Sequence record: OM386662.1
Source of the DNA: Escherichia phage vB_EcoM_ESCO47
Reading direction: 5' to 3' (one strand)
DNA: 64,000 nucleotides
How positions within the stretch are numbered: position 1 is the first letter of the stretch; each line of letters begins with the position of its first letter. The position numbers and the translations under genes are program-made. Positions 1-60,402 of the stretch are shown piece after piece. The notes beneath the pieces were generated by a model that ran no database searches, was not told the DNA's origin, and saw only the letters and a program-made list of their open reading frames with translations.

Positions 1-1
1 T

Positions 2-364
2 AATCTTTGTTTTGATGTCGATGATTGCATCACGGAATGGAATAACACTCGTGATTACGTGAACTTCAAGCCAGACAGCGAAATGGTGTCTGCTATTAAT
101 GCCTTGTATGATGCAGGGCATACCATAACGCTTTACACTGCTCGCGGTATGAAGTCGGTAGGTCCTGGTCGTATAGCAATTGACATTCTCCCAAGTCTGA
201 TTCAGAACTTGGAAAACATTGGTTTGAAGTACCATAATTTGCTAACACATAAACCAGTATATGATTGGATTATCGACGACAAAGCTATGCGTCCTGACGA
301 ATTCAAAGCTCTTATGAATAAAGGCGAATTCGAAACATTTAAATCATATAAACCTAATCTATAA
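2..364 (+). CDS. HAD-superfamily phosphatase, small IIIA-like type; 5' end lies outside the window
   Basis: Frame is open from the window edge; FDVDDC nucleophile motif near the visible N-terminus and a later WIIDDK motif; the listed ORF start at 59 is an internal GTG. Confidence 0.6.
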   Translation, partial: NLCFDVDDCITEWNNTRDYVNFKPDSEMVSAINALYDAGHTITLYTARGMKSVGPGRIAIDILPSLIQNLENIGLKYHNLLTHKPVYDWIIDDKAMRPDEFKALMNKGEFETFKSYKPNL

Positions 365-421
365 TAATTTAAGTAAGACCTGCAAAAACCATCGCGTCAA
401 TTAACGTGAGATGCAAAAAAA

Positions 422-1582
422 ATGAATACTTTTAAAATCGGAACGAATTTTGATTTAGCTCTTCTTGATAAAATCGTAGAGCTCAATAAAACTTATCCTA
501 ATAGCTTAATAAACGAAGTATACGGCTCTACAAGAGAAATGGCTTTTGTAGCAGCCAGACCTGATTTTAGGCTTCCTGACGTTGACAAAAAGATGTTAGA
601 AGATTACGTTAAACGTTGTAACGAATTAGGTATTTGCTTTAACTATACACTCAACACGATAAATCCTGGTTCAAAAAGAGAACTAGTTGAGTGGAAGAAG
701 AAAGCTATTCAGGATTATGTTCAGTATCTTTGGTCAATAGGCGTATGGCGTATTACTATCGCTAACCCTGTTGTTATGGAAATTGTTCGTGAAGTCAATA
801 AAGACATTGAGATTGAAGTTTCAACAATTCTACATGTCGATGCTGTAACTCAAATCAAATACTTGCATGACCAATATAATATTAAAAAGGTCTGTTGCGG
901 AATTCATAAGAACCGTTCAGTTTCTTTCCTGAAGCGTGCAGCAGAGTTTTGCAATAAGAACAATATAATATTTGAAGTTCTTGTAAATGAGTTCTGTTCT
1001 AATGCTGGTAAAGGGTATACAACACATTGTAGTTATCGTGACTCTTGCTATATTTTCCATAGTACTGATGTTACAGTTGATGATGCTAAATCCTTAAACG
1101 GATATCCAATGCAACACTGCATTAAAGCTCGTGATACAGACCCATTTAACTGGTTGAGAACTCGTTTTGTTCGTCCTCAAGATTTGAAACTTTATAATGA
1201 TATTGGTATCACTCAATTCAAAGTTTCAGGACGTACAGGTAGCACAGACTACATTTTGAAAGTTCTTGAAGCATACGCTTCTGAAAAGTTTGAAGGTAAT
1301 TTGTTAGAACTGTGGAAGCCTTTAGAGACTATTTTCACTCTTGAAAATGAAACTGAGTTTTCACATACAGTAAATATTGAAACCTCTTTGTTAGATGGCT
1401 TTTTAGAAAAAAGGTGGTTCAGACATCCAGATTTCGATTGTGCTAATGAAATCTGCGGGACGACGTGTACATATTGTGAAAGATATTATAAACGTCAATT
1501 ATCTAAAAACGGGTTATCAGAAAATTCTATATCTATTATTGATATAACTAACTCTGATGACGCTTTGAGGTACCCGGAATGA
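422..1582 (+). CDS. U32-family-like TIM-barrel protein with Cys-rich C-terminus (putative Fe-S enzyme)
   Basis: 386 aa; NYTLNTIN, VSTILH and FEVLVNEFC...HCSYRDSC segments resemble the peptidase-U32 core; C-terminal CANEICGTTCTYC (CX4CX3CX2C). Confidence 0.45.
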   Translation: MNTFKIGTNFDLALLDKIVELNKTYPNSLINEVYGSTREMAFVAARPDFRLPDVDKKMLEDYVKRCNELGICFNYTLNTINPGSKRELVEWKKKAIQDYVQYLWSIGVWRITIANPVVMEIVREVNKDIEIEVSTILHVDAVTQIKYLHDQYNIKKVCCGIHKNRSVSFLKRAAEFCNKNNIIFEVLVNEFCSNAGKGYTTHCSYRDSCYIFHSTDVTVDDAKSLNGYPMQHCIKARDTDPFNWLRTRFVRPQDLKLYNDIGITQFKVSGRTGSTDYILKVLEAYASEKFEGNLLELWKPLETIFTLENETEFSHTVNIETSLLDGFLEKRWFRHPDFDCANEICGTTCTYCERYYKRQLSKNGLSENSISIIDITNSDDALRYPE

Positions 1583-1818
1583 TTTCTAGAAAAACTTTTA
1601 ACCACCAACTTAATGAAGAGATTTTGACTATGAAAATTAACAGCATCGAACAAATTCTTAAAAAGGCCCTTATGGGCCTGTTTGAAACTAAAGCGGCTAA
1701 AGTGATTAAAGAACCTGTTCAACTAGAATATTACGCTGATGCATTTCTTCATAGTGTTCTTGGAAGTATCGATGCTGAAGCTTTACGTTATATCAACATC
1801 GCTAAGAAATTCAAATAA
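1579..1818 (+). CDS. hypothetical protein (79 aa)
   Basis: ATGA stop/start overlap with upstream gene; no motif recognised. Confidence 0.4.
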   Translation: MISRKTFNHQLNEEILTMKINSIEQILKKALMGLFETKAAKVIKEPVQLEYYADAFLHSVLGSIDAEALRYINIAKKFK

Positions 1819-1860
1819 GCTTTATGAATTGAGTATATAATAAATTGTATTGAGGTAAAC

Positions 1861-2577
1861 ATGGGAAAACATAACACAATGAAATATATCAAAGCCGCAG
1901 ATTTTCAAGCCGCATTTAAAGCAGTCAATCGTGAAATTTTAGAAAACCCGGAATTCGTAACTGATTCTCGTATTGGTCGTTGTAATGAAATTGGGTCTAT
2001 GACAGTAGTTGTTGACACTCCATCATCATTCAAAATGACCGACCCACGTATTAACCGCATCTCTTATGAATATGCCGAAGACTTCTGGAAATTTATGATT
2101 TCTGGTGGTACTGATGCAGAAGAAGCATTTAAGGCATATCCTAACGTTGCTAAATTTATTTCTAAACCAAAATCAGATGCTTTGCCTGCGAACTTCAACA
2201 CTTTCTATGGTCCTCGCATTGCGGCCCAATTACCAACTCTTCTAAAAGAACTTAAAGAGAAGCCTAACTCTCGAAGAGTTGTGTTCCAAATTCTAGAAAG
2301 TTCTGATCAGGCTTTGCTTGATTCGGACGAAACACTTGAATATCCATGTACTGACTCGGTGACTTATTATATTCGCGATGGTAAGCTTTATACCCACTGT
2401 CATATGCGTTCTCAGAACTGTGCTGTTGTTATGCAGTTGGATTTTTATCTCCAAGGAAAATTACTTCATTATATCGCTAACGAATGTGGTGTAGAAGTTG
2501 GTGATTATACTCATACCATGGTAAGTGCCCATGTGTTTGAACGTGATTTTGATTATGTTAAAGGATTCCTTGACTAA
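1861..2577 (+). CDS. 42: deoxycytidylate hydroxymethylase-like enzyme (thymidylate synthase fold)
   Basis: NSRR, YPCTDSVTYYIRDGKL (Cys nucleophile) and RSQN motifs align with the TS family; Asp at the position of TS Asn177; sits where T4 has gene 42, upstream of uvsX. Confidence 0.75.
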   Translation: MGKHNTMKYIKAADFQAAFKAVNREILENPEFVTDSRIGRCNEIGSMTVVVDTPSSFKMTDPRINRISYEYAEDFWKFMISGGTDAEEAFKAYPNVAKFISKPKSDALPANFNTFYGPRIAAQLPTLLKELKEKPNSRRVVFQILESSDQALLDSDETLEYPCTDSVTYYIRDGKLYTHCHMRSQNCAVVMQLDFYLQGKLLHYIANECGVEVGDYTHTMVSAHVFERDFDYVKGFLD

Positions 2578-3476
2578 TGGCTATTTTCCGCGTACCTATC
2601 TTGAGTATGCGGTCTTATGAAACCGGACAGTATGCTATCCTTAAGGATGGCAACTTCCAACTTCATTTGCACCGTGCTAATCCAGGTGATGTGATTACAT
2701 ATCCACGTAATGCATCTGATATTAAAGAATGTGAACGTCTTTTCCCAGAATTTAAGTTTGTTCCATTATGGTATAAAGATAACGCGTATAACACTCGTAA
2801 ATATTTCTGGTCTGAAAATGAATTTGTGGTTGATTCATTAATTGCTTATTATGATTGTGATTTTCTAATCACAGATATCACTGGATATGATGGTGTTTTT
2901 GATGTAGAATTCAATTTCAATATCACTGCAGACCCTAATAAACCACGTTTTTATATTGACGAATTCTTAAAAACCGATATGTTGTCGGTTAATCGTTCAC
3001 TTCAAACTACTGTGTTGAATGAACGTCAAAAAGAAGTGCTGGTTAACGCAGGTGCAGATGGTAATAAGATTATCGTAACGCAGAAAGTTATACGTCCTTC
3101 CATCATGCAGCGTCTTGTAGGTGATTTGGCTCCTATTCATCTAGATGGTATTTTTCATCCATTTCGAATTAGTGACCCGTGCTATCGTTTTGAACAAGTG
3201 GTTGAATGTGCAATTCAATTAGGCCAACCACTTTATATAACCGATCCAAATAATAGCTTCGACAGAAATAAGTATCCTGAAGAAGCGCTGATTCGAATTT
3301 TTAAACCAACTAAAACTGAGTACTATCAAATTCTTAAAGGACGTCCGAAGATTCAATATTTCGAAAATCCTGAAGAAGTATTCCATCCAGGTCTTGGTGA
3401 GTTCATCTACTTTAACGCTTTAATTTCTTCGCCGTATAATATACCTAAATATGAAGATGTCGTAATCGAGGAATAA
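2577..3476 (+). CDS. hypothetical protein (299 aa) in the slot T4 uses for beta-glucosyltransferase
   Basis: TAATG stop/start overlap with gene 42; no resemblance to T4 Bgt as I recall it; no motif recognised. Confidence 0.55.
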   Translation: MAIFRVPILSMRSYETGQYAILKDGNFQLHLHRANPGDVITYPRNASDIKECERLFPEFKFVPLWYKDNAYNTRKYFWSENEFVVDSLIAYYDCDFLITDITGYDGVFDVEFNFNITADPNKPRFYIDEFLKTDMLSVNRSLQTTVLNERQKEVLVNAGADGNKIIVTQKVIRPSIMQRLVGDLAPIHLDGIFHPFRISDPCYRFEQVVECAIQLGQPLYITDPNNSFDRNKYPEEALIRIFKPTKTEYYQILKGRPKIQYFENPEEVFHPGLGEFIYFNALISSPYNIPKYEDVVIEE

Positions 3477-3477
3477 A

Positions 3478-4026
3478 ATGGCTAAAATTATTTTAGTAGA
3501 TGGCCCAGATAATGCTGGTAAAACAACTTTCATTAATGACATAATGGAAATTAGTGAAAGATATGTAAAGATTGATTTCCCTAAACGAACTGTAGATGGA
3601 CGCTTTGATGTTAAGTCTCGAAATGAAGTAGGCTGTTTCGAAACAATGCTAAATTATTTAGACCCTACTAAGATTTATCTGTTAGACCGTGGATATATTA
3701 GTAACTGGGTTTACGGACGTATTCGACAAGATGCGGACTCGGTTCTTGACGTTTATGAACAGGATTATGTTCGTCTTTGCCAAAACCATGATGTGTTCAC
3801 AATTATTTTAACACGTAACGAAATGACTGAAAGTTTTGAAGACGACCTTATCACGTTGTCTGCTCATGGCTTTAATTTTGTTATCTCACTTTTTGAAGAG
3901 TTTGCTGCTCATAATGGAATACAATCTTATCAGTTATTAAACCATGATGGTGCTAACAAAGTTATAGGATTTAATGTAAGTGAACGCAATGCATTGATTG
4001 CAGAAATTATCAAATGGGCTCGTTAA
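3478..4026 (+). CDS. P-loop nucleotide/nucleoside kinase (thymidylate-kinase / deoxynucleoside-kinase-like)
   Basis: Walker A ILVDGPDNAGKTT at N-terminus; LLDRGYIS (DR motif) as in Tmk/dNK kinases; 182 aa. Confidence 0.6.
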   Translation: MAKIILVDGPDNAGKTTFINDIMEISERYVKIDFPKRTVDGRFDVKSRNEVGCFETMLNYLDPTKIYLLDRGYISNWVYGRIRQDADSVLDVYEQDYVRLCQNHDVFTIILTRNEMTESFEDDLITLSAHGFNFVISLFEEFAAHNGIQSYQLLNHDGANKVIGFNVSERNALIAEIIKWAR

Positions 4027-4047
4027 GAGCCTATTTAAAGTTTAAAA

Positions 4048-4072
4048 TGCTGTATAACCTGTAGTATATAAT
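4048..4072 (+). promoter_or_regulatory. candidate MotA-dependent middle promoter upstream of uvsX
   Basis: MotA-box-like TGCTGTA 4048-4054, 12 bp, then -10 TATAAT 4067-4072. Confidence 0.35.
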
Positions 4073-4126
4073 CATCCTATCTTTTAAACGTGAGTAAAAT
4101 ATAATGACGCCTATGGAAAAAATACA

Positions 4127-5299
4127 ATGTCTGATTTAAAATCTCGTCTGATTAAAGCTTCTACTTCCAAAATGACCGCTGACTTGACTAAGTCTAAGCT
4201 CTTTAATAATCGTGATGAAGTCCCTACTCGTATTCCTATGTTGAATATTGCATTAGGTGGTGCATTGAATGCTGGTTTGCAGTCTGGTTTGACTATTTTT
4301 GCTGCCCCGTCTAAACACTTTAAAACATTGTTTGGGTTGACAATGGTTGCCGCATATATGAAGAAATACCCAGATGCGATCTGTTTGTTCTATGATTCAG
4401 AATTTGGTGCTTCAGAATCTTATTTCCGTTCAATGGGTGTTGATTTGGACCGCGTAGTTCACACTCCAATCCAATCAGTAGAACAACTTAAAGTTGATAT
4501 GACTAATCAGCTTGATGCAATCGAACGCGGTGAAAAGGTTATCATCTTTATTGACTCAATCGGTAACACAGCGTCTAAGAAAGAAACTGAAGATGCATTG
4601 AACGAAAAAGTTGTTGGTGATATGTCTCGTGCTAAGGCACTTAAATCTCTGTTCCGCATTGTGACCCCGTATCTGACTATTAAAGATATTCCGTGTGTTG
4701 CAATTAACCATACAGCAATGGAAATCGGCGGATTGTATCCTAAAGAGATTATGGGCGGCGGTACAGGTATTCTTTATTCTGCCAACACGGTATTTTTTAT
4801 CTCTAAACGTCAGGTTAAAGAAGGTACAGAATTGGCCGGTTATGACTTCACGTTGAAAGCAGAAAAATCTCGCACAGTTAAAGAGAAATCTACATTCCCG
4901 ATCACTGTTAATTTTGATGGTGGTATCGACCCATTCAGTGGCTTGTTAGAAATGGCAACTGAAATTGGTTTTGTAGTTAAGCCTAAAGCAGGTTGGTATG
5001 CTCGTGAATTCCTTGACGAAGAAACCGGTGAAATGGTTCGTGAAGAAAAATCCTGGCGAGCTAAAGCCACAGATTGCGTAGAATTCTGGGGACCTTTGTT
5101 TAAACACAAACCTTTCCGAGATGCAATTGAAACTAAATATAAACTAGGTGCTATCTCTTCTATTAAAGAAGTTGACGACGCAGTTAACGAATTAATCAAT
5201 GCTAAAACGTCTTCGAAAATTCCGGTAAAAGCTTCTGGTGCTCCATCTGCAGCTGATATCGAAAATGATTTAGACGATATGGAAGATTTTGATGAATAA
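4127..5299 (+). CDS. uvsX: UvsX recombinase (RecA-like)
   Basis: 390 aa; N-terminus MSDLKSRLIKASTSK and long stretches matching T4 UvsX as I recall it; RecA-type ATPase core. Confidence 0.96.
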   Translation: MSDLKSRLIKASTSKMTADLTKSKLFNNRDEVPTRIPMLNIALGGALNAGLQSGLTIFAAPSKHFKTLFGLTMVAAYMKKYPDAICLFYDSEFGASESYFRSMGVDLDRVVHTPIQSVEQLKVDMTNQLDAIERGEKVIIFIDSIGNTASKKETEDALNEKVVGDMSRAKALKSLFRIVTPYLTIKDIPCVAINHTAMEIGGLYPKEIMGGGTGILYSANTVFFISKRQVKEGTELAGYDFTLKAEKSRTVKEKSTFPITVNFDGGIDPFSGLLEMATEIGFVVKPKAGWYAREFLDEETGEMVREEKSWRAKATDCVEFWGPLFKHKPFRDAIETKYKLGAISSIKEVDDAVNELINAKTSSKIPVKASGAPSAADIENDLDDMEDFDE

Positions 5300-7170: not shown

Positions 7171-7488
7171 ATGAAAACTATCGATTGCAAAGCAGAGTTT
7201 AAAGTTTTTTACCATGGCTCAAGCAGTGCAGCAAACATCGAAAACATGCTTTGTCCTCCTGAAGAAACAGGTGTACTGTCTGAAACCGGACGTAAGAAAA
7301 ACCTAAATCGAGTATTCTTTACTGAAGACATTGGTTTAGCAAAGATTTATGCAGGACGAGCAGCACGATCCTATGGAGGTGAACCACGTCTTTATCGAGT
7401 AATCACTCCGGTAGACGTAGTTCAAATGAATGATACTAAAGGTGCTACGGTATATCACGCCGAATGGGCCTTCTGTGAGGAAATATGA
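7171..7488 (+). CDS. hypothetical protein (105 aa)
   Basis: Preceded by an early promoter element; contains FYHGSS motif; function not recognised. Confidence 0.5.
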   Translation: MKTIDCKAEFKVFYHGSSSAANIENMLCPPEETGVLSETGRKKNLNRVFFTEDIGLAKIYAGRAARSYGGEPRLYRVITPVDVVQMNDTKGATVYHAEWAFCEEI

Positions 7489-7673
7489 GCAAATTAACTA
7501 AAGTTACTTTTATCGGTTGGTTTAAAAGCGGTGAGATGTTCACTAAAGATATCATGTTATCAGGTGATCGCGAAGAAATCGAGTGGGTTACGGTACAACT
7601 TGCTGAAGTGAACAACGCATTAGTTAAAGCATTTGTTAATGACGAGAAAGTTTTCGAAGCAGATTTTCGATAA
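7485..7673 (+). CDS. hypothetical protein (62 aa)
   Basis: Stop/start overlap with upstream ORF; no motif recognised. Confidence 0.4.
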   Translation: MSKLTKVTFIGWFKSGEMFTKDIMLSGDREEIEWVTVQLAEVNNALVKAFVNDEKVFEADFR

Positions 7674-7686
7674 TTTTAAAATAACT

Positions 7687-7716
7687 GTTTACAGGCCCCA
7701 CATACTGTGTTACTAT
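7687..7716 (+). promoter_or_regulatory. early promoter-like element
   Basis: -35 GTTTAC 7687-7692, -10 TACTAT 7711-7716, CTATCAA downstream; ATG at 7745. Confidence 0.5.
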
Positions 7717-7744
7717 CTTTCTATCAACTACAGAGGAAATTGAA

Positions 7745-8113
7745 ATGAAAAAATTAATCGCTTTAGCAATGGTATTTGGATTAACCGGATGTGGTGCCCA
7801 TGGCTTTATCCCTAATAACGTCGGCCAATTGATTTACAATCCGAATGTTAAACAGTATGACCAACCTAAAGTTGAAGTGGAAGACCCAGTTACTGTAGGT
7901 AATCGAATGATTCAAGCTGATGCTCATGCTCAACGTTATCGTGATTCTGATACTGTAGCTGTGTCAAAAGAACAGCGCGTTAAAGAACATTGCTTACAGG
8001 CTACTGAAATCGCATTCATTCGCTATGTTGAAACAACTGGTAAAGAGCCTTCCCAGAAACAAATCGCGAATAACTACGTCCAGTGTATTGAACGTTTAAA
8101 CAAATTTAATTAA
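7745..8113 (+). CDS. putative lipoprotein (122 aa)
   Basis: N-terminal signal peptide with lipobox-like LTGC; promoter element upstream. Confidence 0.55.
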   Translation: MKKLIALAMVFGLTGCGAHGFIPNNVGQLIYNPNVKQYDQPKVEVEDPVTVGNRMIQADAHAQRYRDSDTVAVSKEQRVKEHCLQATEIAFIRYVETTGKEPSQKQIANNYVQCIERLNKFN

Positions 8114-8116
8114 TTG

Positions 8117-8146
8117 GTTTACGCCAAAGTTAAAACAAGATACTAT
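8117..8146 (+). promoter_or_regulatory. early promoter-like element
   Basis: -35 GTTTAC 8117-8122, -10 TACTAT 8141-8146; ATG at 8175. Confidence 0.5.
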
Positions 8147-8174
8147 AAACATAACAAATCAAGAGGAAATTAAC

Positions 8175-8423
8175 ATGGAATTATTCGTAGCTAGTTCAGT
8201 AGCAGTTTTAATCGCAGGTATTGGTTCAATCATCATTTACATGTTGCCTTGGGTAATCGCACTTATTCGTGGCACAAAAAGCACAACAGCAATCTTCTTT
8301 GTATCTTTACTCTTTAACTGGACGATGGTTGGTTGGATTGGAACTTTAATTTGGTCTATCGTTGCCAAAAAGAAATCGGCTCAGCAGCCTCAACAAGTAA
8401 TTATTATTCGAGAAAAAGAATAA
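8175..8423 (+). CDS. imm: superinfection-immunity (Imm-family) membrane protein
   Basis: 82 aa, two predicted TM helices; LPWVIALIRG...FNWTMVGWIGTLIW matches the conserved core of the Imm superinfection-immunity family. Confidence 0.6.
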   Translation: MELFVASSVAVLIAGIGSIIIYMLPWVIALIRGTKSTTAIFFVSLLFNWTMVGWIGTLIWSIVAKKKSAQQPQQVIIIREKE

Positions 8424-8427
8424 ACTT

Positions 8428-8462
8428 GTTTACATTATAGATGGACTATAGTATAGTAGTCC
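8428..8462 (+). promoter_or_regulatory. early promoter-like element with inverted repeat around -10
   Basis: -35 GTTTAC 8428-8433, -10 TATAGT 8452-8457 inside GGACTA...TAGTCC repeat 8443-8462; ATG at 8487. Confidence 0.5.
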
Positions 8463-8486
8463 TATCAAATCAACTAAGGAGATAAA

Positions 8487-8780
8487 ATGAAAAAGTTATC
8501 ATTGGCAGCAATCTTACTTGCAGTATCATGCGCACCGGCTCCAGTTACGGCAGGTTATGATAAAGACCTCTGTGAGTGGTCAATGACTGCAAATCAAGAA
8601 GATGTTGAACAACAAATCTTCTCTGATATCATGAACATCACTAAACGAGACCGTCCTAATATGGTTAATAAAGTTGTTGAACAACTTAAGTCTGGCGGTA
8701 TCATGCAGTACAATTATGTTTTGTATTGTGACCCTAATTTTGATAACAAAGATATCGTAACCGAAATCACAGGTGAATAA
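8487..8780 (+). CDS. sp: spackle-like periplasmic protein (superinfection exclusion)
   Basis: 97 aa with signal peptide; GYDKDLCEWSMTA...QYNYVLYCD resembles T4 Sp as I recall it; adjacent to imm-like gene. Confidence 0.6.
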   Translation: MKKLSLAAILLAVSCAPAPVTAGYDKDLCEWSMTANQEDVEQQIFSDIMNITKRDRPNMVNKVVEQLKSGGIMQYNYVLYCDPNFDNKDIVTEITGE

Positions 8781-8781
8781 T

Positions 8782-9432
8782 ATGATTTATTATATGCACA
8801 AAAATGCGCCATTTAAATATGGTAAATTTCCTAATGCACAATGTTATAATATAACGCCGAATGAAAATAATAACGGATATCATCTCGGTGTAATTTTTGT
8901 AATTGTTAAAGATAACGAAATCGTCGCCTGGGCGGATTTTAAAGGTACAACATATGATGTTAATCCTGTGCCTTTCACATATTACAATATAACGGATTTG
9001 GCATATGATTATAATTGGTTTAATCATGACACGTTGGCTCATATTGAAGGTGTAGGATTTGACATCTCTTATTCTAGCTATTCATTATGTCCTATGAGCC
9101 GAGCTCACGGTAAAGATGCATCATATCTTTCAATTCGTAAACGTGTAAACTTCAAACGTAGTACAGATTATGTTGGTGGTCTCTTTGTTAAAGATAATAA
9201 AATAACCCGTATTAGTTATCCTTTAAGTGTAGGTCAAAAAGATGTTGATGTTGATTTAGACTTAACTGAAAATAACATTAATCGTATTGCTTCTGTATAT
9301 TTTGATATCGATGAAAAAATTGTAGTGTGTGGATACGAATTACCACCTGAAGAAAAGGCTGAAGCAATTGAAGTCGAATTAGAAATTTCTGTTGATGACC
9401 AAATATTTAATGCATTTATGAATCGAGGTTAA
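8782..9432 (+). CDS. hypothetical protein (216 aa)
   Basis: Listed ORF begins at GTG 8773; first ATG at 8782 follows GGTGA; no motif recognised. Confidence 0.5.
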   Translation: MIYYMHKNAPFKYGKFPNAQCYNITPNENNNGYHLGVIFVIVKDNEIVAWADFKGTTYDVNPVPFTYYNITDLAYDYNWFNHDTLAHIEGVGFDISYSSYSLCPMSRAHGKDASYLSIRKRVNFKRSTDYVGGLFVKDNKITRISYPLSVGQKDVDVDLDLTENNINRIASVYFDIDEKIVVCGYELPPEEKAEAIEVELEISVDDQIFNAFMNRG

Positions 9433-13130: not shown

Positions 13131-13309
13131 TGAATAAAATTGTCAAGTGGTTTAAAAGTTGGAACGATGGTATTGAGCATAAAGACTGGCTTGATGTTCT
13201 TGATGAGAATTTATCTAAAGAGATTCAAGAACACGAAAAGAAGCAAGTTGAAGCCGAAGGTATCCGTCTTGTGAAACTTTATATGGGCGAACCTAGGAGA
13301 ACATTATGA
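13130..13309 (+). CDS. hypothetical small protein (59 aa)
   Basis: TAATG stop/start overlap with upstream ORF; below the ORF-track length cutoff. Confidence 0.3.
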
Positions 13310-13455
13310 CGTGTACCAAAGAAGCTGAAGCCAGAGCAAAGGAAGCTTTAGATTTGCTTCTCAAAATCGGTAGTAAAATGATGGAAGAGAACGAAAAATA
13401 CATCCAAGAAAATAAAACTCCGGATGGTCCATTAGTTGGTAAGAGGAAATCATAA
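13306..13455 (+). CDS. hypothetical small protein (49 aa)
   Basis: ATGA overlap with upstream ORF and ends exactly at the next ATG; below the ORF-track cutoff. Confidence 0.3.
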
Positions 13456-13853
13456 TGAAAGCTAATTTATACCACATACATATCGACGGTCAAAAATTCC
13501 CTATTGAAGTATTGATCCCTAGTGAGTGGTCAGCGTATAACACTGAAATGTACCGGCGCATTGAAGAACAGTTTTTAACGAGTATTTCTCCTAAAGGTTA
13601 CGAAGTAGAAATCCGACTGGCCGGTGAATTCCACTATGACCCATCTTCGCCATTTGACGTAAGTGAAATCATCATTAATAAAGGATTCGTTAGTCCTGGC
13701 AATAGTTCGTCTCTTTATGGTTACATAAACGATATCATTATCTGCGGAAATAAATTCAGTATATTCCATGAAGAAGACTTGAGAGAGTTCAAAAAGTTGG
13801 TATGGAACTACTTCGGTGAAACCGGGTTTAATTTTATTAAGGCGCCTAAATGA
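13455..13853 (+). CDS. hypothetical protein (132 aa), paralog of next gene
   Basis: Shares SSPFDVSEIIINKGFVSPGN-type block with the downstream ORF. Confidence 0.5.
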   Translation: MKANLYHIHIDGQKFPIEVLIPSEWSAYNTEMYRRIEEQFLTSISPKGYEVEIRLAGEFHYDPSSPFDVSEIIINKGFVSPGNSSSLYGYINDIIICGNKFSIFHEEDLREFKKLVWNYFGETGFNFIKAPK

Positions 13854-14332
13854 TGGCTAAAATACTCGAATTAGAATTTTATATTCGTGATAACCGTGGC
13901 CAAACTCGTCCTTATGATGACACAGTTTGCGTTATCTTAGTACCATCTGACACTAGTAACAGTTCATCTGAAAGCCTCGAAAAGGCTATTAATAGTATGG
14001 CTCTTCCTGAAAACGTTATGCTTAAAATAAAGCATAATAAAAATGTTGAGATGCAACCAGGTAGCCCATTTACAGTAGTAGAAGCATTGCTGATTAAAGG
14101 TTATAGTTATCCTAACAACAGATCAGAAGGCGAGAACTCTAAAGAAATTTTCTTTACAACTCCTGATAAAGACTGTCTCGAAGGACGAAGCTATCTTGTA
14201 GGAAGCACTTCTGACGTACTCGAAATCCAACGTCAGATCTGGACGCATTTTGATATCGGACTTCGCTTTACGTTAACAGAGTCAGCCCTTCTAGAACAAT
14301 CTCTTCGTCGACGCATGTACGGTGGTTTCTAA
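13850..14332 (+). CDS. hypothetical protein (160 aa), paralog of previous gene
   Basis: GSPFTVVEALLIKGYSYPNN block similar to the upstream ORF; ATGA overlap. Confidence 0.5.
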   Translation: MMAKILELEFYIRDNRGQTRPYDDTVCVILVPSDTSNSSSESLEKAINSMALPENVMLKIKHNKNVEMQPGSPFTVVEALLIKGYSYPNNRSEGENSKEIFFTTPDKDCLEGRSYLVGSTSDVLEIQRQIWTHFDIGLRFTLTESALLEQSLRRRMYGGF

Positions 14333-14511
14333 TGGATTTAATGAGCATGTTTGATGAGCCTGAAGTTGAGGCTCCTAAAGCACAACGTGGAGAACTCGTT
14401 GACGAACTGGACATTATTATACAGCGTCACGGGTTTAATCTTCCTATAGAAGTCCTGAAAGACCTAGCGTCTTACTACGATGATCCACCTCCTTGGGCCC
14501 CTTGGTCATAA
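14332..14511 (+). CDS. hypothetical small acidic protein (59 aa)
   Basis: TAATG overlap with upstream ORF; below the ORF-track cutoff. Confidence 0.3.
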   Translation: MDLMSMFDEPEVEAPKAQRGELVDELDIIIQRHGFNLPIEVLKDLASYYDDPPPWAPWS

Positions 14512-20978: not shown

Positions 20979-22796
20979 ATGATTAAAAATGAAATTAAAG
21001 TATTATCAGACGTAGAACATATTAAGAAACGTAGTGGTATGTATATTGGTTCTTCGGCTAAAGAAGCACATGAGCGTTTTTTGTTTGGTAAATATCAACA
21101 AGTTGAATATGTTCCTGGTCTGGTTAAATTAATCGATGAGATTATTGACAACTCGGTTGATGAAGCTATTCGTACATCATTTAAGTTCGCAAATAAAATT
21201 GATGTGCAAATTAAAAATAATCAAGTTTCGGTGGAAGATAACGGACGTGGTATTCCTCAAGGTTTAGTTACCGACCAAACAGGTGAACAAATTCCTGGGC
21301 CTGTAGCAGCCTGGACTATTCCAAAGGCCGGCGGTAACTTTGGCGATGACTCTGAACGCAAGACCGGTGGTATGAACGGCGTCGGGAGTAGTTTAACTAA
21401 TATCTTCTCTACGTTGTTTACAGGCATCACGTCAGATGGCGAAAATGAAATCACTGTTAATTGTTCAAACGGAATGGAAAACAAATCATGGTCTTCTAAG
21501 AAATCTAAAGGTAAAGGAACTAAAGTAATCTTCACTCCTGATTTCTCTTCATTTGAAGAGCATAATTTATCTCAAATTTATTTAGATATTACTTTAGACC
21601 GACTTCAAACATTGGCAGTCGTTTATCCTGATATCAAGTTCACATTTAATGGTAAAAAGGTTGATGGTAATTTTAAACGATTTGCTAAACAATTTGGCGA
21701 AGATAACATCATTCAAGAAAACGATAAAGTGTCAATCGCATTCACAACATCGCCTGACGGTTTTCGACATTTGACGTATGTGAACAACATTCATACTAAA
21801 AATGGTGGACATCATGTTGAATGTGTAATGGATGATATCTGCGAACATCTTTTGCCCGGTATTAAAAAGAAATATAAGGGTATTGAGGTAACTAAAGCTC
21901 GTGTTAAAGAATGTCTCACGATGCTGATGTTTATTCGTGATATGAGCAACATGCGTTTTGATTCTCAGACTAAAGAACGTTTAACGTCAACGTATGGTGA
22001 TATTCGTAATCATATCCAATTAGATGCTAAGAAAATTGCTCAGTCACTTCTTAAAAATGAAGCTCTGATTATGCCTATTGTTGAAGCAGCATTAGCTCGT
22101 AAATTAGCAGCAGAAAAGGCCGCCGAAACTAAAGCAGCTAAAAAGGCCACTAAAGCAAAAGTTCATAAGCATATTAAAGCTAATCAATGTGGTAAAGATG
22201 CAGATACGACATTGTTCTTAACAGAAGGTGATTCGGCAATTGGTTATCTCATTGATGTTCGTGACCGTGAACTACACGGCGGATTCCCATTACGTGGTAA
22301 GGTGATGAATAGCTGGGGTATGTCATATGCTGATATGATGAAGAACAAAGAGCTCTTTGATATCTGTGCTATCACAGGTCTTATTCTCGGTGAAAAGGCA
22401 GAGAACACGAACTATCGTAATATCGCAATTATGACCGATGCCGATCATGACGGTCTTGGAAGTATCTATCCGGCTTTGCTTGCTTTCTTTAGTAATTGGC
22501 CTGAATTGTTTGAACAAGGACGTATTCGCTTTGTTAAAACTCCGGTAATTATTGCACAAATTGGCAAAACACAAAAATGGTTTTATACTGTAGCTGAGTA
22601 TGAAGAAGCTAAAGAATCATTACCAAAACACGGTATTCGATATATTAAAGGACTTGGTTCACTTGAAAAATCCGAATACCGTGAAATGATTCAGAATCCA
22701 GTTTATGACGTAGTTAAATTGCCTGAAAACTGGAAAGAGTTGTTTGAAATGTTGATGGGTAATGACCCGGATCTTCGTAAAGAATGGATGTCCTAA
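20979..22796 (+). CDS. 39: DNA topoisomerase II large (ATPase) subunit, fused gp39+gp60 equivalent
   Basis: 605 aa GyrB-like; continuous frame with no bypass gap or inserted element. Confidence 0.92.
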   Translation: MIKNEIKVLSDVEHIKKRSGMYIGSSAKEAHERFLFGKYQQVEYVPGLVKLIDEIIDNSVDEAIRTSFKFANKIDVQIKNNQVSVEDNGRGIPQGLVTDQTGEQIPGPVAAWTIPKAGGNFGDDSERKTGGMNGVGSSLTNIFSTLFTGITSDGENEITVNCSNGMENKSWSSKKSKGKGTKVIFTPDFSSFEEHNLSQIYLDITLDRLQTLAVVYPDIKFTFNGKKVDGNFKRFAKQFGEDNIIQENDKVSIAFTTSPDGFRHLTYVNNIHTKNGGHHVECVMDDICEHLLPGIKKKYKGIEVTKARVKECLTMLMFIRDMSNMRFDSQTKERLTSTYGDIRNHIQLDAKKIAQSLLKNEALIMPIVEAALARKLAAEKAAETKAAKKATKAKVHKHIKANQCGKDADTTLFLTEGDSAIGYLIDVRDRELHGGFPLRGKVMNSWGMSYADMMKNKELFDICAITGLILGEKAENTNYRNIAIMTDADHDGLGSIYPALLAFFSNWPELFEQGRIRFVKTPVIIAQIGKTQKWFYTVAEYEEAKESLPKHGIRYIKGLGSLEKSEYREMIQNPVYDVVKLPENWKELFEMLMGNDPDLRKEWMS

Positions 22797-24244: not shown

Positions 24245-26458
24245 ATGATTATTGAAACGGCTAAAGAAACGATTATTGGTTCAGGCGGTAAGAGCACAGC
24301 ATTCACTATTCAAGCAAACAGTAAAGTGTATAAGATTCTTTCTAACGATCTTTACACAAACAAAGAACGAGCTTGTGTACGTGAATTAATCACAAACTGT
24401 ATTGATGGGCAAATTCTTAATGGCTGCACTGATAAGTTTATTGTTCAGGCACCAGGTCGTTTAGACCCACGTTTTGTAGTTCGAGACTTTGGTCCTGGTA
24501 TGAGTGATTTCACCATTCGAGGTAATGACGAAGAGCCAGGAATTTATAACTCATATTTTGCTTCAACTAAAACATCGAGTAACGATTTCATTGGTGGATT
24601 CGGACTCGGTTCTAAAGCTCCATTAGCATATACTGATACGTTTAACATTACTTCTTATCATAATGGTGAAGTTCGTGGTTATGTAATTTATCAAGATGAC
24701 AGTGGTCCACAGATTAAGCCAACCTTCGTAGATAAGATGGGTCCTGATGACCGGACCGGTGTTGAAGTAGTTGTGCCTGTTAACCCAGAAGATTTTGAAA
24801 AGTTCGCATCCGAAATTGCTTATGTTATGCGTCCTCTCGGCGATATTGCAGAAGTTCGTGGTGTTAAAGATATCAAATACTTCCCTGATTTCGACGACGT
24901 TTATCTGGCCAAGGATGCTCCATGGGGTGAACGTGGTAACATCATGGCTGTTTATGGTGGTATTGTATATCCTATCAGTGACGCTATTAAAGAACAAACA
25001 TGGATGATGACGCGATGCACTACAGCTTATATTAAATTCCCCATGGGTGAACTAGATGTAGCCCCGTCTCGTGAAGCATTGTCATTTGATAAACGTACAG
25101 TAGCAAATATCCATAAACGTGTTGCAGAAATTGATGCAAAATTATTTGCTGAAGATTCTAAGAAATGGATTGATTGTGAATATCCACGTCATGTATTCCG
25201 TGAAATCGATTCTCTTGGTTACTCTGCTCGTAAATACATGGAAAAAGCTGGTTCTAATATTGAATCACTGAAATATTCTAAAGAACAGCTAACTTATTCT
25301 GAGTTGTACAAACGTTTTAAAATGGGTCCTGAATGGTGCAACCTTGGTGTTGTATACGATATCGTTTCAGACCCACGTCTTCGTCGTATTCGTGAAAGCG
25401 GAAGCTCGTCTGCAACTATTTCAATTAATAGCCTGCTAGGTATTAGCCGTAAGCATATTGATATTGTTATTGACGATGTGAAAGGCCGCGTACCAATGAT
25501 GCGTGCTCTGAACGATGCTTTGACTTCCACTGATGCATCAACACTCGTTGATAAGGTTCCTTCCGGATGGGGTAGTAGCGTATTATTCATTAACCCGGAA
25601 GATGAAGTTGCAATGAAACTTCTAGAACGATTAAAGGTTATTTTCGCTGGGGATAGCCTTAAATTTTATAAGACATCTGAAATTCTTGCATTAGTTAAAC
25701 CGTGGATTGAAGTTAAAGAACGTTCATCGCAGCCTCGTCCTAAATCCCCAAGTGCTCATCGGTTCTTTAAGAATGAAAACGATGTTTGGGTATCAGAAGA
25801 TCTCTTTATTCCAGCGAGTGAAGCTGATGAAATCCAAGGTTATGCTATAGTTCGTAATCGTTCTAATGCTGAATGTCTTGACGCAGATAAAGGTTGGTTG
25901 AACTATGACTCCAATTTCTTGACCCGTATTGCTGATTTGTCAGGTATTAAAGAGTTCACTGTAGTCCGTCCACAGATTGCTAAGAAAGTTCGTAAACTTG
26001 GTGAAGTAGAATGCTTGTTCGAAAAATCAATTAATGACTATATTACGCTAATTGATAAAGTGGATTATGATGAGTATGTATCACCAAGTCGTAGAGCACA
26101 GCCTTATTTGAATCATATTACTCGTAATGAAGAGCTTAACTTCCTTAGTAAGTATTTTAGCTCTAAGAACAAAGAAATCAGTAAAGATTTTGCAAAACTT
26201 TCAACAGTAAATAATCGTTGGGGATGGAATCGATTCTCAGGTGTTACTAACAGAGAACTGAATAAGAAGTTGGAATTGTGTGCTAAAATTTTCGATAAGC
26301 TTAAAGATAATGCTTACGATAATGATGATAAAATGGTTATTGAATTCGAAACCAATTATCATATTGTGTCAGACTACATGGGACGACGTGGTACTCTTTC
26401 CAAAGAACAGGTCGCTCAAATCGTTAAATTCATGAAGGCCGTGGAAGCGGCCAAATAA
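24245..26458 (+). CDS. rIIA: rIIA membrane-associated protein (GHKL ATPase-like N-domain)
   Basis: 737 aa; Bergerat-fold motifs ELITNCIDG, DFGPGM, GGFGLGSKA; followed by rIIB. Confidence 0.9.
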   Translation: MIIETAKETIIGSGGKSTAFTIQANSKVYKILSNDLYTNKERACVRELITNCIDGQILNGCTDKFIVQAPGRLDPRFVVRDFGPGMSDFTIRGNDEEPGIYNSYFASTKTSSNDFIGGFGLGSKAPLAYTDTFNITSYHNGEVRGYVIYQDDSGPQIKPTFVDKMGPDDRTGVEVVVPVNPEDFEKFASEIAYVMRPLGDIAEVRGVKDIKYFPDFDDVYLAKDAPWGERGNIMAVYGGIVYPISDAIKEQTWMMTRCTTAYIKFPMGELDVAPSREALSFDKRTVANIHKRVAEIDAKLFAEDSKKWIDCEYPRHVFREIDSLGYSARKYMEKAGSNIESLKYSKEQLTYSELYKRFKMGPEWCNLGVVYDIVSDPRLRRIRESGSSSATISINSLLGISRKHIDIVIDDVKGRVPMMRALNDALTSTDASTLVDKVPSGWGSSVLFINPEDEVAMKLLERLKVIFAGDSLKFYKTSEILALVKPWIEVKERSSQPRPKSPSAHRFFKNENDVWVSEDLFIPASEADEIQGYAIVRNRSNAECLDADKGWLNYDSNFLTRIADLSGIKEFTVVRPQIAKKVRKLGEVECLFEKSINDYITLIDKVDYDEYVSPSRRAQPYLNHITRNEELNFLSKYFSSKNKEISKDFAKLSTVNNRWGWNRFSGVTNRELNKKLELCAKIFDKLKDNAYDNDDKMVIEFETNYHIVSDYMGRRGTLSKEQVAQIVKFMKAVEAAK

Positions 26459-56826: not shown

Positions 56827-57743
<917 letters not shown>

Positions 57744-57744
<1 letters not shown>

Positions 57745-58828: not shown

Positions 58829-59821
58829 ATGTTACCTGTCATCAGAAAACTTATTTCTCCAAAAGAACTGGCTGAGATTATTCCTTTGTCGGAAGCTTAC
58901 GCATCACAAGTGGCTTCTCATCGCGAACAAGTTAATTCGATTATGAACGGTGAAGACCCACGCAAACTTATTGTTGTAGGTCCTTGTTCAATTCATGACC
59001 CTATTGCTGCTGTTGAATACGGCAAACGTCTGGCTGAACTTCAAACTCGTCTTCCTAATGTTCTGTTAGTGATGCGCGTTTATTTTGAAAAGCCTCGAAC
59101 TACCGTAGGTTGGAAAGGTCTTGTAAATGATCCATATCTTGACGGAAGTTTTGATATGAACCACGGTCTTATAGTTGCACGAACATTGTGTCGTAAACTT
59201 CTGCGTATGGGACTTCCATTAGCAACTGAAGTATTAGACCCATTCACGATTAAGTATCTTTCTGGTATTTTCTCATGGGTTGCTATTGGCGCCCGTACGA
59301 CTGAAAGTCAGACACATCGTGAAATTGCTTCAGGTCTACCGATGTGCGTAGGCTTCAAGAACGCAACCAATGGTTCTATTAAAGTAGCTACAGACGCGAT
59401 GTATAGTGCCGCCCAGCCTCATCGGTATATGGGTATGGACGTCGATGGTACTGTAGGCATTGTTGAAGCTGAAGGTAATCAGAATACGCATATCGTATTG
59501 CGTGGTGGGACTAACGGTCCGAACTATCATTCTTCTGATATTCAAGAAGCTTCTAACAAAGCAAGTGCGGTAGGTCTGAATCATTATGTAATGGTTGACT
59601 GTAGCCATGCAAACGCTGGTGGGTATTATAGCAATCAAATTGATATTGGTAAAAATTTAGCAGCTAATGATTTGGTCAAAGGAATTATGATAGAATCATT
59701 CCTACATGAAGGAAATCAAAAAATTTCTGATAATATGTCCTATGGCGTTTCCATTACCGATGCGTGCATCAGTTGGGAACAAACTAAAGAGCTGTTAACT
59801 TATATTAATAAGGTTCAATAA
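58829..59821 (+). CDS. 3-deoxy-D-arabino-heptulosonate-7-phosphate (DAHP) synthase, class I AroG/AroF/AroH-like
   Basis: 330 aa; hallmark motifs GPCSIHD, RVYFEKPRTTVGWKGL, GARTTESQ, GFKN and ESFLHEGNQ; AAGGA RBS. Confidence 0.85.
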   Translation: MLPVIRKLISPKELAEIIPLSEAYASQVASHREQVNSIMNGEDPRKLIVVGPCSIHDPIAAVEYGKRLAELQTRLPNVLLVMRVYFEKPRTTVGWKGLVNDPYLDGSFDMNHGLIVARTLCRKLLRMGLPLATEVLDPFTIKYLSGIFSWVAIGARTTESQTHREIASGLPMCVGFKNATNGSIKVATDAMYSAAQPHRYMGMDVDGTVGIVEAEGNQNTHIVLRGGTNGPNYHSSDIQEASNKASAVGLNHYVMVDCSHANAGGYYSNQIDIGKNLAANDLVKGIMIESFLHEGNQKISDNMSYGVSITDACISWEQTKELLTYINKVQ

Positions 59822-60402
59822 TGAAAGCTAGCACATATCTTCAAATTGCTTATTTGATTTCTCAAGAATCAAAATGTTGTTCATGGAAAGTTGGTGCCGT
59901 CATTGAAAAAGATGGACGCATTATCTCTACTGGATATAATGGTTCACCTGCAGGTGGCGTTAACTGTTGCGAACAGGCATCCGAAAATGGTTGGTTGAAG
60001 AATAAACCGAGTCCGGTCATCGTTGCTGGACATAAAGAAGGCACTACGGCATTTGGACGGGCAGATAATTTTGTTTTGGCTAAAGAACATCGAGCGGCTC
60101 ATAGTGCATGGTCTGCTAATAATGAAATCCATGCTGAACTGAATGCAATTTTATTTGCAGCTCGTAAAGGTAATTCTATTGAAGGTGCTACGTTGTATAC
60201 GACGCTTTCTCCGTGTCCTGATTGCACTAAAGCTATTACACAGTCGGGTATTAAAAAGGTTGTATACGCAGAATTATATGACAGATCTCCTGAAAATTGG
60301 GCAGACATTCTTAAACAAGCTGGTATTGAAGTAATTCAGTACTCTCGTAATAATCTTCGTTCTCTGAATTGGGAACAAATCCGAAACTTTTGTGGTGAAT
60401 AA
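59821..60402 (+). CDS. cd: dCMP deaminase
   Basis: 193 aa; zinc-binding HAELNAI and SPCPDCT motifs. Confidence 0.9.
   Translation: MKASTYLQIAYLISQESKCCSWKVGAVIEKDGRIISTGYNGSPAGGVNCCEQASENGWLKNKPSPVIVAGHKEGTTAFGRADNFVLAKEHRAAHSAWSANNEIHAELNAILFAARKGNSIEGATLYTTLSPCPDCTKAITQSGIKKVVYAELYDRSPENWADILKQAGIEVIQYSRNNLRSLNWEQIRNFCGE

Follow-up and report, generated by a model that had tools for sequence, protein, structure and literature searches.

The 64,000-nucleotide stretch of Escherichia phage vB_EcoM_ESCO47 analyzed here (sequence record OM386662.1; "the window") raises the question of why a phage that already encodes an oxygen-dependent pyrimidine hydroxylase should also carry, two genes away, a relative of the oxygen-independent hydroxylases of the U32 family. 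The window is 97% identical in DNA sequence to Escherichia phage RB69 (Mosigvirus), which identifies its source as an RB69-like Mosigvirus, and the product of its U32-family gene is 99.5% identical to RB69 gp50, the name used below. RB69 DNA contains 5-hydroxycytosine (5hoC), mono- and di-arabosylated, instead of hydroxymethylcytosine (hmC) (Lee et al., NAR 2026, PMC13326640). The thymidylate synthase (TS) homolog gp48 makes 5-hydroxy-dCMP (5hodCMP), binds flavin, and takes up 18O from 18O2 (PMC13326640). All cytosine is replaced in these phages, and the habitat of their enteric hosts is the largely anoxic gut; since the oxygen added by gp48 comes from O2, another oxygen source would be needed anaerobically. 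We propose that gp50 is, on balance probably, an O2-independent, prephenate-dependent C5 hydroxylase of pyrimidine nucleotides and the anaerobic counterpart of gp48.

A conserved U32 protein in a DNA modification cluster

The initial annotation, made from the letters alone, had assigned the product of this gene to the U32 family, and both profile and fold searches agreed. In a profile hidden Markov model (HMM) search, Pfam PF01136 (Peptidase_U32) matched residues 94 to 286 at 42.4 bits (gathering cutoff, 22.4; E value, 6.3e-11), and PHROG 5757 ("peptidase") covered the protein over its full length. An AlphaFold2 (AF2) model (predicted local distance difference test [pLDDT], 90.5; predicted template modeling score [pTM], 0.89) had as its top Foldseek match in the PDB the U32 peptidase Mk0906 (5D88; E value, 1.6e-7; template modeling [TM] score, 0.71 on the target; root mean square deviation, 3.8 Å), and the other solved-structure matches were generic TIM barrels. 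Sequence searches of the PDB, whether single-sequence or profile, gave no meaningful match, and no NCBIfam equivalog was reached (UbiU NF047963 scored 19.4 bits against a cutoff of 440). Database searches returned 268 relatives, comprising a phage clade at 76% identity or above and a large unnamed metagenomic family at 46 to 58%, and nearly all of the relatives listed carried a precomputed PF01136 match. We conclude that gp50 is a U32-family protein.

Conservation was assessed in an alignment of 30 family members with identities down to 46%. Ten cysteines were invariant in all 30 sequences (C158, C177, C192, C203, C209, C233, C340, C345, C349, and C352), as were E190, R206, Y210, H213, and G346. 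The C-terminal CX4CX3CX2C arrangement that the initial annotation had pointed out is thus present and invariant throughout. A radical S-adenosylmethionine (SAM) reading of C345-X3-C349-X2-C352 (CxxxCxxC) was rejected: there was no Radical_SAM Pfam match at an E value of ≤1, the motif is C-terminal rather than N-terminal, and the invariant fourth cysteine, C340, would complete ligation. When compared with the E. coli U32 proteins by hhalign, gp50 scored 81% with RlhA (203 columns), 7.8% with TrhP, 4.2% with UbiU, and 0.5% with UbiV. The RlhA alignment placed invariant E190, C203, and C209 on E161, C169, and C176, and the UbiU equivalents of the cysteine pair are C169 and C176. In RlhA, an E161A substitution leaves trace activity, and two U32-motif cysteines plus two C-terminal cysteines are essential (PMC5727448). 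UbiU and UbiV each hold one [4Fe-4S] cluster through four cysteines, and the pattern CX6CX15CX3/4C is common to most U32 families (PMC6747719). The DUF3656 domain gave no Pfam match at an E value of ≤1 in gp50; without that domain, and at 386 residues compared with about 650, gp50 is not an RlhA ortholog, and RlhA is only its nearest characterized relative.

The gene order around gp50 is HAD (haloacid dehalogenase) phosphatase gp51, gp50, gp49, TS-fold gp48, glycosyltransferase gp46:47, kinase gp45, and UvsX, such that sugar-activation genes flank the U32 gene on one side and the 5hodCMP synthase, glycosyltransferase, and kinase flank it on the other (Table 1). The initial annotation had described the gene as adjacent to a pyrimidine hydroxymethylase. 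A TS-fold gene does lie nearby, but a 79-codon open reading frame (ORF) separates the two, and the TS-fold protein is published not as a hydroxymethylase but as a flavin- and O2-dependent 5hodCMP synthase (PMC13326640). Because that neighbor is itself a C5 hydroxylase, the idea of a base-hydroxylating U32 protein is sharpened to that of an O2-independent counterpart. UDP-arabinose is supplied by an isomerase, a bifunctional kinase/uridylyltransferase, and the HAD phosphatase, along a route from ribulose 5-phosphate (Ru5P) through arabinose 5-phosphate (A5P), arabinose 1,5-bisphosphate (A1,5P2), and arabinose 1-phosphate (A1P) to UDP-arabinofuranose (UDP-Araf) (PMC13326640). In that study gp50 appears in Table 1 only, as a "sugar or heterocycle reductase" with a fold match to 5D88 and without discussion, and the papers on RNA pyrimidine hydroxylation that its discussion cites are not tied to gp50. 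Elsewhere gp50 has been described as having "homologs among peptidases" (earlier work), as a "putative enzyme involved in UDP-arabinose biosynthesis" (BASEL annotation), and as a "hypothetical protein" (GenBank record of phage HY126, protein XAN60477.1).

Selective constraint on the U32 gene was estimated from ratios of nonsynonymous to synonymous substitution (dN/dS), which were 0.038 against RB69, 0.018 against Bas46, and 0.009 against HY126. In the same comparisons, the ratio for gp48 was 0.039 to 0.052 and that for gp49 was about 0.10 to 0.12. We conclude that constraint on the U32 gene is at least as tight as that on gp48.

Possible prephenate supply genes beside the U32 gene

Prephenate and Fe-S are required by RlhA, TrhP, and UbiU/UbiV (PMC5727448, PMC6747719, PMC10990095); the need of RlhA for prephenate synthesis and for the iron-sulfur cluster (ISC) system and Fe-S biogenesis was shown genetically (PMC5727448), and prephenate is the oxygen donor in the UbiU/UbiV pathway (PMC10990095). 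The initial annotation had noted a 3-deoxy-D-arabino-heptulosonate 7-phosphate synthase (DAHPS) in the window and had linked it, purely as a hypothesis, to prephenate for the U32 protein. The DAHPS gene is genuine, scoring well above the TIGR00034 aroFGH cutoff, and lies 57 kb from the U32 gene. The link to prephenate gains strong comparative support, in that chorismate mutase (CM) or a DAHPS-CM fusion adjoins U32 in several independent phage lineages and DAHPS co-occurs with U32 across T4-like phages. The window DAHPS gene is inserted between pseT (56836..57744) and cd (59821..60402), and its stop codon overlaps the cd start.

Among T4-like phages, the U32 stop codon is overlapped in Enterobacter phage Entb_45 and Serratia phage LC53 (U32 protein UYM28692.1) by a gene for an AroQ CM (CM_2, 40.9 and 44.6 bits; cutoff, 27), and in Kanagawavirus, Winklervirus, and related genera a CM confirmed by Pfam lies immediately downstream of the U32 gene. 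A U32-linked CM was found in 56 phage records, always between U32 and the TS homolog. Moreover, the record counts of DAHPS and U32 by host genus ran nearly in parallel (Klebsiella, 25/26; Proteus, 7/7; Serratia, 6/7; Enterobacter, 4/4; Edwardsiella, 3/3), and DAHPS was present in 9 of 12 near-complete U32-positive T4-like contigs from IMG/VR compared with none of 7 U32-negative contigs carrying the synthase, counts that are phylogenetically nonindependent. Phage JS98, which has an arabinosyl-5hoC-type cluster, lacks U32, gp49, and, at the syntenic pseT-cd site, DAHPS. CM, DAHPS, or both were present in every U32-positive T4-like phage examined. We note that DAHPS is missing from just those complete U32-positive T4-like contigs that have both gp49 and CM (L020, L023, L015, and L028, namely, Yersinia TG1, fHe-Yen9-01, Pectobacterium PM2, and one metagenomic contig).

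The same genes recur in jumbo-size phage contigs whose U32 proteins are only 45 to 55% identical. A stand-alone CM follows U32 in L044 (after a 3-nucleotide gap), L047, L049, L050, L053, L055, L166, and L167; a fusion of class I-beta DAHPS to CM follows it in L038, L040 to L042, L164, and L052 (where it overlaps the U32 stop); and DAHPS alone follows it in L006 and L027, all domains being confirmed by Pfam or NCBIfam. In the fusions (for example, L041:4321-5376), the DAHPS domain is N-terminal and the AroQ CM domain C-terminal. Both domains also occur in B. subtilis AroA. Literature searches, none of them aimed at such fusions, turned up no phage DAHPS-CM example. The C4 proteins of the distant phages were also considered as 3-deoxy-D-manno-octulosonate 8-phosphate (KDO8P) synthases of sugar chemistry, and this was rejected, as they scored 216 to 237 bits with DAHPS models compared with 63 for KDO8P synthase and several are fused to CM. 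DAHPS of two classes (I-alpha in the window, I-beta in the jumbo-size contigs) and CMs both fused and separate have thus been recruited with U32 in independent lineages. Phage DAHPS has so far been read as an auxiliary gene for aromatic amino acids (PMC11845039). We conclude that its distribution instead tracks the U32 gene.

The small ORF gp49, which separates U32 from gp48 in the window and is translationally coupled to U32 through the ATGA overlap, was present in 162 phage records, mostly Mosigvirus, and lay beside U32 in every one; it occurs in tandem with CM in Yersinia and Pectobacterium phages. Y51, D54-A55-F56, H58-S59, R70, and N73 are invariant. A fold search with its AF2 hairpin gave no match, and no homolog of known function was found. 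The reading frame is broken by indels in HY126, and two-piece tblastn matches were obtained in AV112, phi25-307, AV118, and SSE1. A diverged AroQ CM was considered and rejected: there was no CM_2 match at an E value of ≤10, hhalign to phage CMs gave 0.1%, the two-helix hairpin differs from the three-helix AroQ fold, and the tandem phages carry both genes. The gp49 protein may serve U32 as an accessory factor, or its gene may be in decay.

Distribution across hosts and distant lineages

The O2-dependent synthase was found in 373 phage records, including 57 from Acinetobacter and 20 from Rhizobium. U32 was found in 221 phage records, the listed hosts of which are all facultative anaerobes, with neither Acinetobacter nor Rhizobium among the listed genera. 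Acinetobacter and Rhizobium are obligate aerobes, and their phages have the O2-dependent synthase without U32; in Acinetobacter phage Maestro, the phosphatase gene abuts the synthase gene with nothing between. Across 185,579 species-representative genomes, the U32 subfamily occurred in only 11 loci, most of them labeled as anaerobic taxa (Erysipelotrichales, Oscillospiraceae, Gastranaerophilaceae, Romboutsia, Tannerella, Phocaeicola, and Woesearchaeota). The RB69 record encodes the anaerobic ribonucleotide reductase NrdD/NrdG. An ORF of the window at 20979..22796 was considered as NrdD and rejected, as it is a gp39-like topoisomerase subunit.

Outside the T4-like phages, 34 U32 lineages (40 to 58% identity) remained after dereplication at 90% identity. 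A gp46:47-like glycosyltransferase lay within 6 kb of U32 in 21 of the 34. Common companions were a KpsF/KdsD-type A5P isomerase, an AfhE-like nucleotidyltransferase plus APH-kinase, a KdsC-like HAD phosphatase, a second glycosyltransferase, MazG, a dUTPase-like protein, a thymidylate kinase (TMPK)-like kinase, and uracil-DNA glycosylase (UDG) or dCMP deaminase. A six-frame search with a TS-family HMM, which as a positive control picked up both gp48 and td of the window, found no TS-fold protein in 20 of the 21 glycosyltransferase loci, a result that covers ±6 kb only; the single match, in L029, was ThyA-like. The same HMM found no TS-fold protein in the 11 genomic loci. As the 20 glycosyltransferase loci have no TS-fold enzyme in that range, U32 would fill the slot of the base modifier. 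The minimal recurring cassette is MazG, TMPK-like kinase, glycosyltransferase, and U32, and the position of U32 in it favors a nucleotide-level substrate.

Several of these loci merit separate description. L030, L034, L035, L039, L043, L056, and L036/L045/L051/L057 are jumbo-size, low-GC viral contigs with MazG, TMPK-like kinase, gp46:47-like glycosyltransferase, and U32; the A5P isomerase, nucleotidyltransferase/kinase, and KdsC-like phosphatase are optional, a PolIII-alpha-type polymerase adjoins, and no TS-fold enzyme is nearby. Their content suggests that these phages have an uncharacterized DNA with glycosylated hydroxypyrimidines. In L003, a JGI contig of 466 kb, the U32 start is overlapped by a gene for dCMP deaminase (7447-8004), and so in some lineages the substrate may be dUMP, yielding 5-hydroxy-dUMP, rather than dCMP. 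L004/L005/L162, from a Bacillota metagenome-assembled genome, carry two U32 paralogs (in L004, U32 at 8001-9098 and a second U32-like gene at 13227-14360) among genes for NT5C, a nicotinamide mononucleotide (NMN) transporter, a deoxynucleoside kinase, a nucleoside 2-deoxyribosyltransferase-like protein, a radical SAM/SPASM protein, and an alanyl-tRNA synthetase (AlaRS)-like protein. This salvage-type nucleotide context differs from the cassettes while the U32 subfamily is the same, and a dockerin/GH43 protein nearby points to a cellulolytic anaerobe.

The coordinates of the window features are collected in Table 1, and those of the U32 gene, like its length, are exactly as the initial annotation had given them. 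A run of eight A residues (415-422) runs into the U32 start codon (ATG, 422-424), the ATG at 411 is out of frame and would stop immediately, and the annotated gp50 start in RB69 is 9 nucleotides farther upstream than the window ATG. Homopolymer length near 415-422 may affect the U32 start site or expression. A promoter and terminator scan of positions 1 to 4200 did not rise above shuffled sequence. The arabinosyltransferase is one ORF in the window, and the RB69 record (24597..25497) splits it into ORF046c and ORF047c; the intact ORF agrees with the view of Lee et al., who attribute the split to an error in sequencing the reference. The HAD phosphatase gp51 is called "phosphoheptose isomerase" or "capsule biosynthesis protein" in many phage records, and the isomerase name is also that of PHROG 1238, apparently a misannotation that has spread from record to record.

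Table 1. Features of the window discussed in the text
Feature	Coordinates	Strand	Remarks
HAD phosphatase (RB69 gp51/AfhF-like)	1..364	+	5′ end cut by window edge; PHROG 1238 from profile position 42; TIGR01689; role, PMC13326640
U32-family gene (RB69 gp50 ortholog)	422..1582	+	ATG start; 386 aa
U32 core motif region, E190 to C233	989..1120	+	NEFC(192)...HC(203)SYRDSC(209)YIFHS...QHC(233)
C-terminal CX4CX3CX2C (C340, C345, C349, C352), candidate second Fe-S site	1439..1477	+	Four Cys and G346 invariant in 30/30
gp49-like ORF, 79 aa	1579..1818	+	ATG overlaps U32 stop (ATGA); AF2 two-helix hairpin, pLDDT 83
TS-fold 5-hydroxy-dCMP synthase (RB69 gp48 ortholog)	1861..2577	+	Pfam Thymidylat_synt; 99% identical to gp48
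DNA arabinosyltransferase 1 (RB69 gp46:47 ortholog)	2577..3476	+	Intact, 299 aa; assignment, PMC13326640 Table 1
Thymidylate-kinase-like nucleotide kinase (RB69 gp45 ortholog)	3478..4026	+	PHROG 761; PMC13326640 Table 1
Class I-alpha DAHP synthase (AroFGH type)	58829..59821	+	TIGR00034, 430.9 bits (cutoff, 173.2); PF00793, 254 bits

A proposed role, its rivals, and known systems

We infer that gp50 is a divergent, virus-borne member of the Fe-S, prephenate-dependent, O2-independent U32 hydroxylases. In an oxygen-poor host, gp50 would hydroxylate a pyrimidine deoxynucleotide at C5, the likeliest reaction being that of dCMP to 5hodCMP. The oxygen atom would come from prephenate, which would leave as phenylpyruvate and CO2, and two electrons would be carried off by one or two [4Fe-4S] clusters, the first in the U32 core on C203, C209, and probably C192 and C233 and the second on the C-terminal CX4CX3CX2C motif. 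The product would then pass through nucleotide kinases, be incorporated by the phage polymerase, and be arabosylated on the 5-OH in DNA by gp46:47 and gp3. Phage DAHPS, joined in sister genera by the CM beside U32, would raise the prephenate supply.

Several points weigh against this proposal. A tested function for gp50 was not found in the accessible literature, and the guess of Lee et al. was a different one (PMC13326640). The canonical CX6CX15CX3/4C motif is only half kept, the first pair being CX5C and the third and fourth positions having no cysteine. With only the first pair kept and its spacing at five, the phage family is a variant rather than a textbook U32 member; judging from the alignment, other invariant cysteines (C192 and C233; C340/C345/C349/C352) could substitute for the missing ligands. 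As of 2024, in vitro reconstitution had not been achieved for any U32 hydroxylase (PMC10990095). A CM is recognizable nowhere in the window phage, which would therefore rely on host PheA/TyrA; gp49 is unrelated to CM, and HY126, in which gp49 is disrupted, reportedly makes arabinosyl-5hoC (PMC13326640). CM or DAHPS lies within 6 kb of U32 in only 10 of the 34 distant lineages, and about 12 of the 34 have no informative context. Dhakaviruses such as JS98 infect E. coli without U32; the enzyme is thus not obligatory for enteric phages, and a strict rule of host aerobiosis is weakened. Finally, dCMP may not be the substrate, the alternatives being dUMP, a di- or triphosphate, and DNA itself.

The last of these alternatives, in which gp50 would hydroxylate cytosine or another base on DNA after replication as a repair or backup for unmodified C, still using prephenate, draws on the action of the nearest characterized relatives, RlhA and TrhP, on polynucleotides, and the prephenate and Fe-S arguments hold for it equally. 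We regard it as distinctly unlikely, since the conserved cassettes have a nucleotide kinase of their own together with a dNTPase (MazG or dUTPase-like), the signature of prereplicative modification at the nucleotide level, and since the compact protein has no recognizable nucleic-acid-binding domain, the DUF3656 of RlhA being absent. Modification of host or phage tRNA or rRNA (5-hydroxyuridine [ho5U] or 5-hydroxycytidine [ho5C]), which would adjust translation in infected cells and have no connection with DNA modification, is a still less probable role. RlhA is the closest characterized homolog, and T4-like phages encode tRNAs and RNA-modifying functions; against this, gp50 has no RNA-binding domain, synteny with DNA-glycosylation genes is kept in lineages at only 45 to 55% identity, and U32 co-occurs with the 5hoC pathway and is missing from hmC-using T4-like phages, all 221 tblastn matches, each at least 80% identical, being in 5hoC-type clusters.

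A place on the sugar branch or in later tailoring, with gp50 as a reductase or oxidoreductase acting on an NDP-pentose or a glycosylated base (the guess in Table 1 of PMC13326640), we consider unlikely. The gene does directly follow the sugar-activation genes, and distant U32 genes adjoin those for isomerase, nucleotidyltransferase, phosphatase, and glycosyltransferase, but the published route from Ru5P to UDP-Araf is complete without gp50 and the DLP3 and Maestro clusters lack U32, yet arabinosyl-5hoC is reported in both (PMC13326640). Moreover, no characterized U32 enzyme is a sugar reductase, and a reductase would leave the repeated recruitment of CM and DAHPS unexplained. That recruitment is equally unexplained if gp50 were an electron-transfer or flavin-reducing partner of gp48, which we think very improbable: the probable Fe-S binding and the position two genes from a protein whose flavin needs a reductant would suit such a partner, but 20 lineages have U32 and glycosyltransferase with no TS-fold protein nearby, and Acinetobacter phages run gp48-type chemistry without U32. 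A collagenase-like protease, as most database annotations have it, is scarcely credible; the historical family name and the labels "peptidase" and "collagenase-like protease" speak for it, but the characterized family members are hydroxylation factors, a peptidase mechanism was never established, and ten invariant cysteines in a context of nucleotide metabolism do not fit. Each rival explains less of the evidence, notably the repeated CM/DAHPS recruitment together with the absent TS-fold enzymes.

If gp50 is a prephenate-dependent nucleotide hydroxylase, it would explain how sugar-coated DNA is synthesized without oxygen in the gut, and phage DAHPS and CM would be suppliers of an oxygen donor rather than aromatic-amino-acid helpers (PMC11845039). 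U32/prephenate hydroxylation would then reach from RNA and quinones to DNA precursors and viruses, and a U32 hydroxylase would for the first time be encoded by a virus, act on a DNA precursor, and have a small soluble substrate. With such a substrate and a single chain, in vitro reconstitution of prephenate-dependent hydroxylation would be feasible at last. The modification state of therapeutic Mosigvirus phages, and hence their sensitivity to restriction and defense, may hinge on oxygen and the U32 gene. More tentatively, and stopping short of calling it probable, we suggest that the U32 subfamily is a widespread, previously unrecognized O2-independent route to 5-hydroxypyrimidine DNA, acting as the sole base hydroxylase in phages of strict anaerobes, with phage prephenate supply and DNA glycosyltransferases, and as a backup of the TS-fold enzyme in enteric T4-like phages; uncharacterized glycosylated DNA would thereby be indicated in jumbo-size phages associated with anaerobes. 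Neither the gene, which annotations have long included, nor the U32 family is new. New relative to the accessible literature are the assignment of an anaerobic hydroxylase to the 5hoC pathway, the functional interpretation given to DAHPS and CM of phages, and the related cassettes in anaerobe-associated phages; full-text searching, with He et al. 2026 (phage HY126) and Mahler et al. 2025 outside its scope, yielded no paper that connects U32 proteins with hydroxylation of phage DNA.

Among known systems, the published pathway of 5hodCMP synthases (gp48, DLP3 gp80, and that of HY126) shares with gp50 the gene cluster and, as proposed, the product 5hodCMP and the downstream kinases and arabinosyltransferases. 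It differs in using a TS fold with flavin and O2, compared with a U32 TIM barrel and proposed Fe-S/prephenate chemistry, and the U32 gene is optional in distribution, with Acinetobacter, Rhizobium, and Dhakavirus phages lacking it. The distant cassette of MazG, kinase, glycosyltransferase, and U32 is organized on the same principle as the T4 module (dNTPase, base modifier, kinase, and glycosyltransferase), with U32 in the base-modifier position. Mk0906 is the best structural match and the only solved U32 structure found; it is 11% identical, and its 247-residue target spans the barrel only, whereas the phage protein adds about 100 C-terminal residues with the four-cysteine motif.

RlhA (YdcP), the E. 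coli 23S rRNA 5-hydroxycytidine-2501 synthase, is the best profile match, and the reaction proposed for gp50 is likewise C5 hydroxylation of cytosine. The essential glutamate and the two U32-motif cysteines are kept in the phage protein, and both proteins have extra C-terminal cysteines. RlhA differs in having 653 residues with DUF3656, in having the full CX6CX15CX3C motif where gp50 lacks the third and fourth cysteines and has the compact CX4CX3CX2C instead, and in acting on rRNA, whereas the virus-encoded gp50 is proposed to act on a deoxynucleotide. TrhP/TrhO (for ho5U in tRNA) and UbiU-UbiV/UbiI-H-F (for ubiquinone) are each a nonhomologous pair for one product, in which an O2-independent, prephenate-using U32 member is matched by an O2-dependent one, so that together they span the full range of O2. 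The sequence similarity of TrhP, UbiU, and UbiV to the phage protein is marginal (hhalign, <8%), there is no UbiT-like partner in the phage, and the O2-dependent phage partner is, unlike TrhO or UbiI, a TS-fold flavoenzyme. The corresponding pairing in the phage would be that of U32 gp50 with flavin/O2-dependent gp48.

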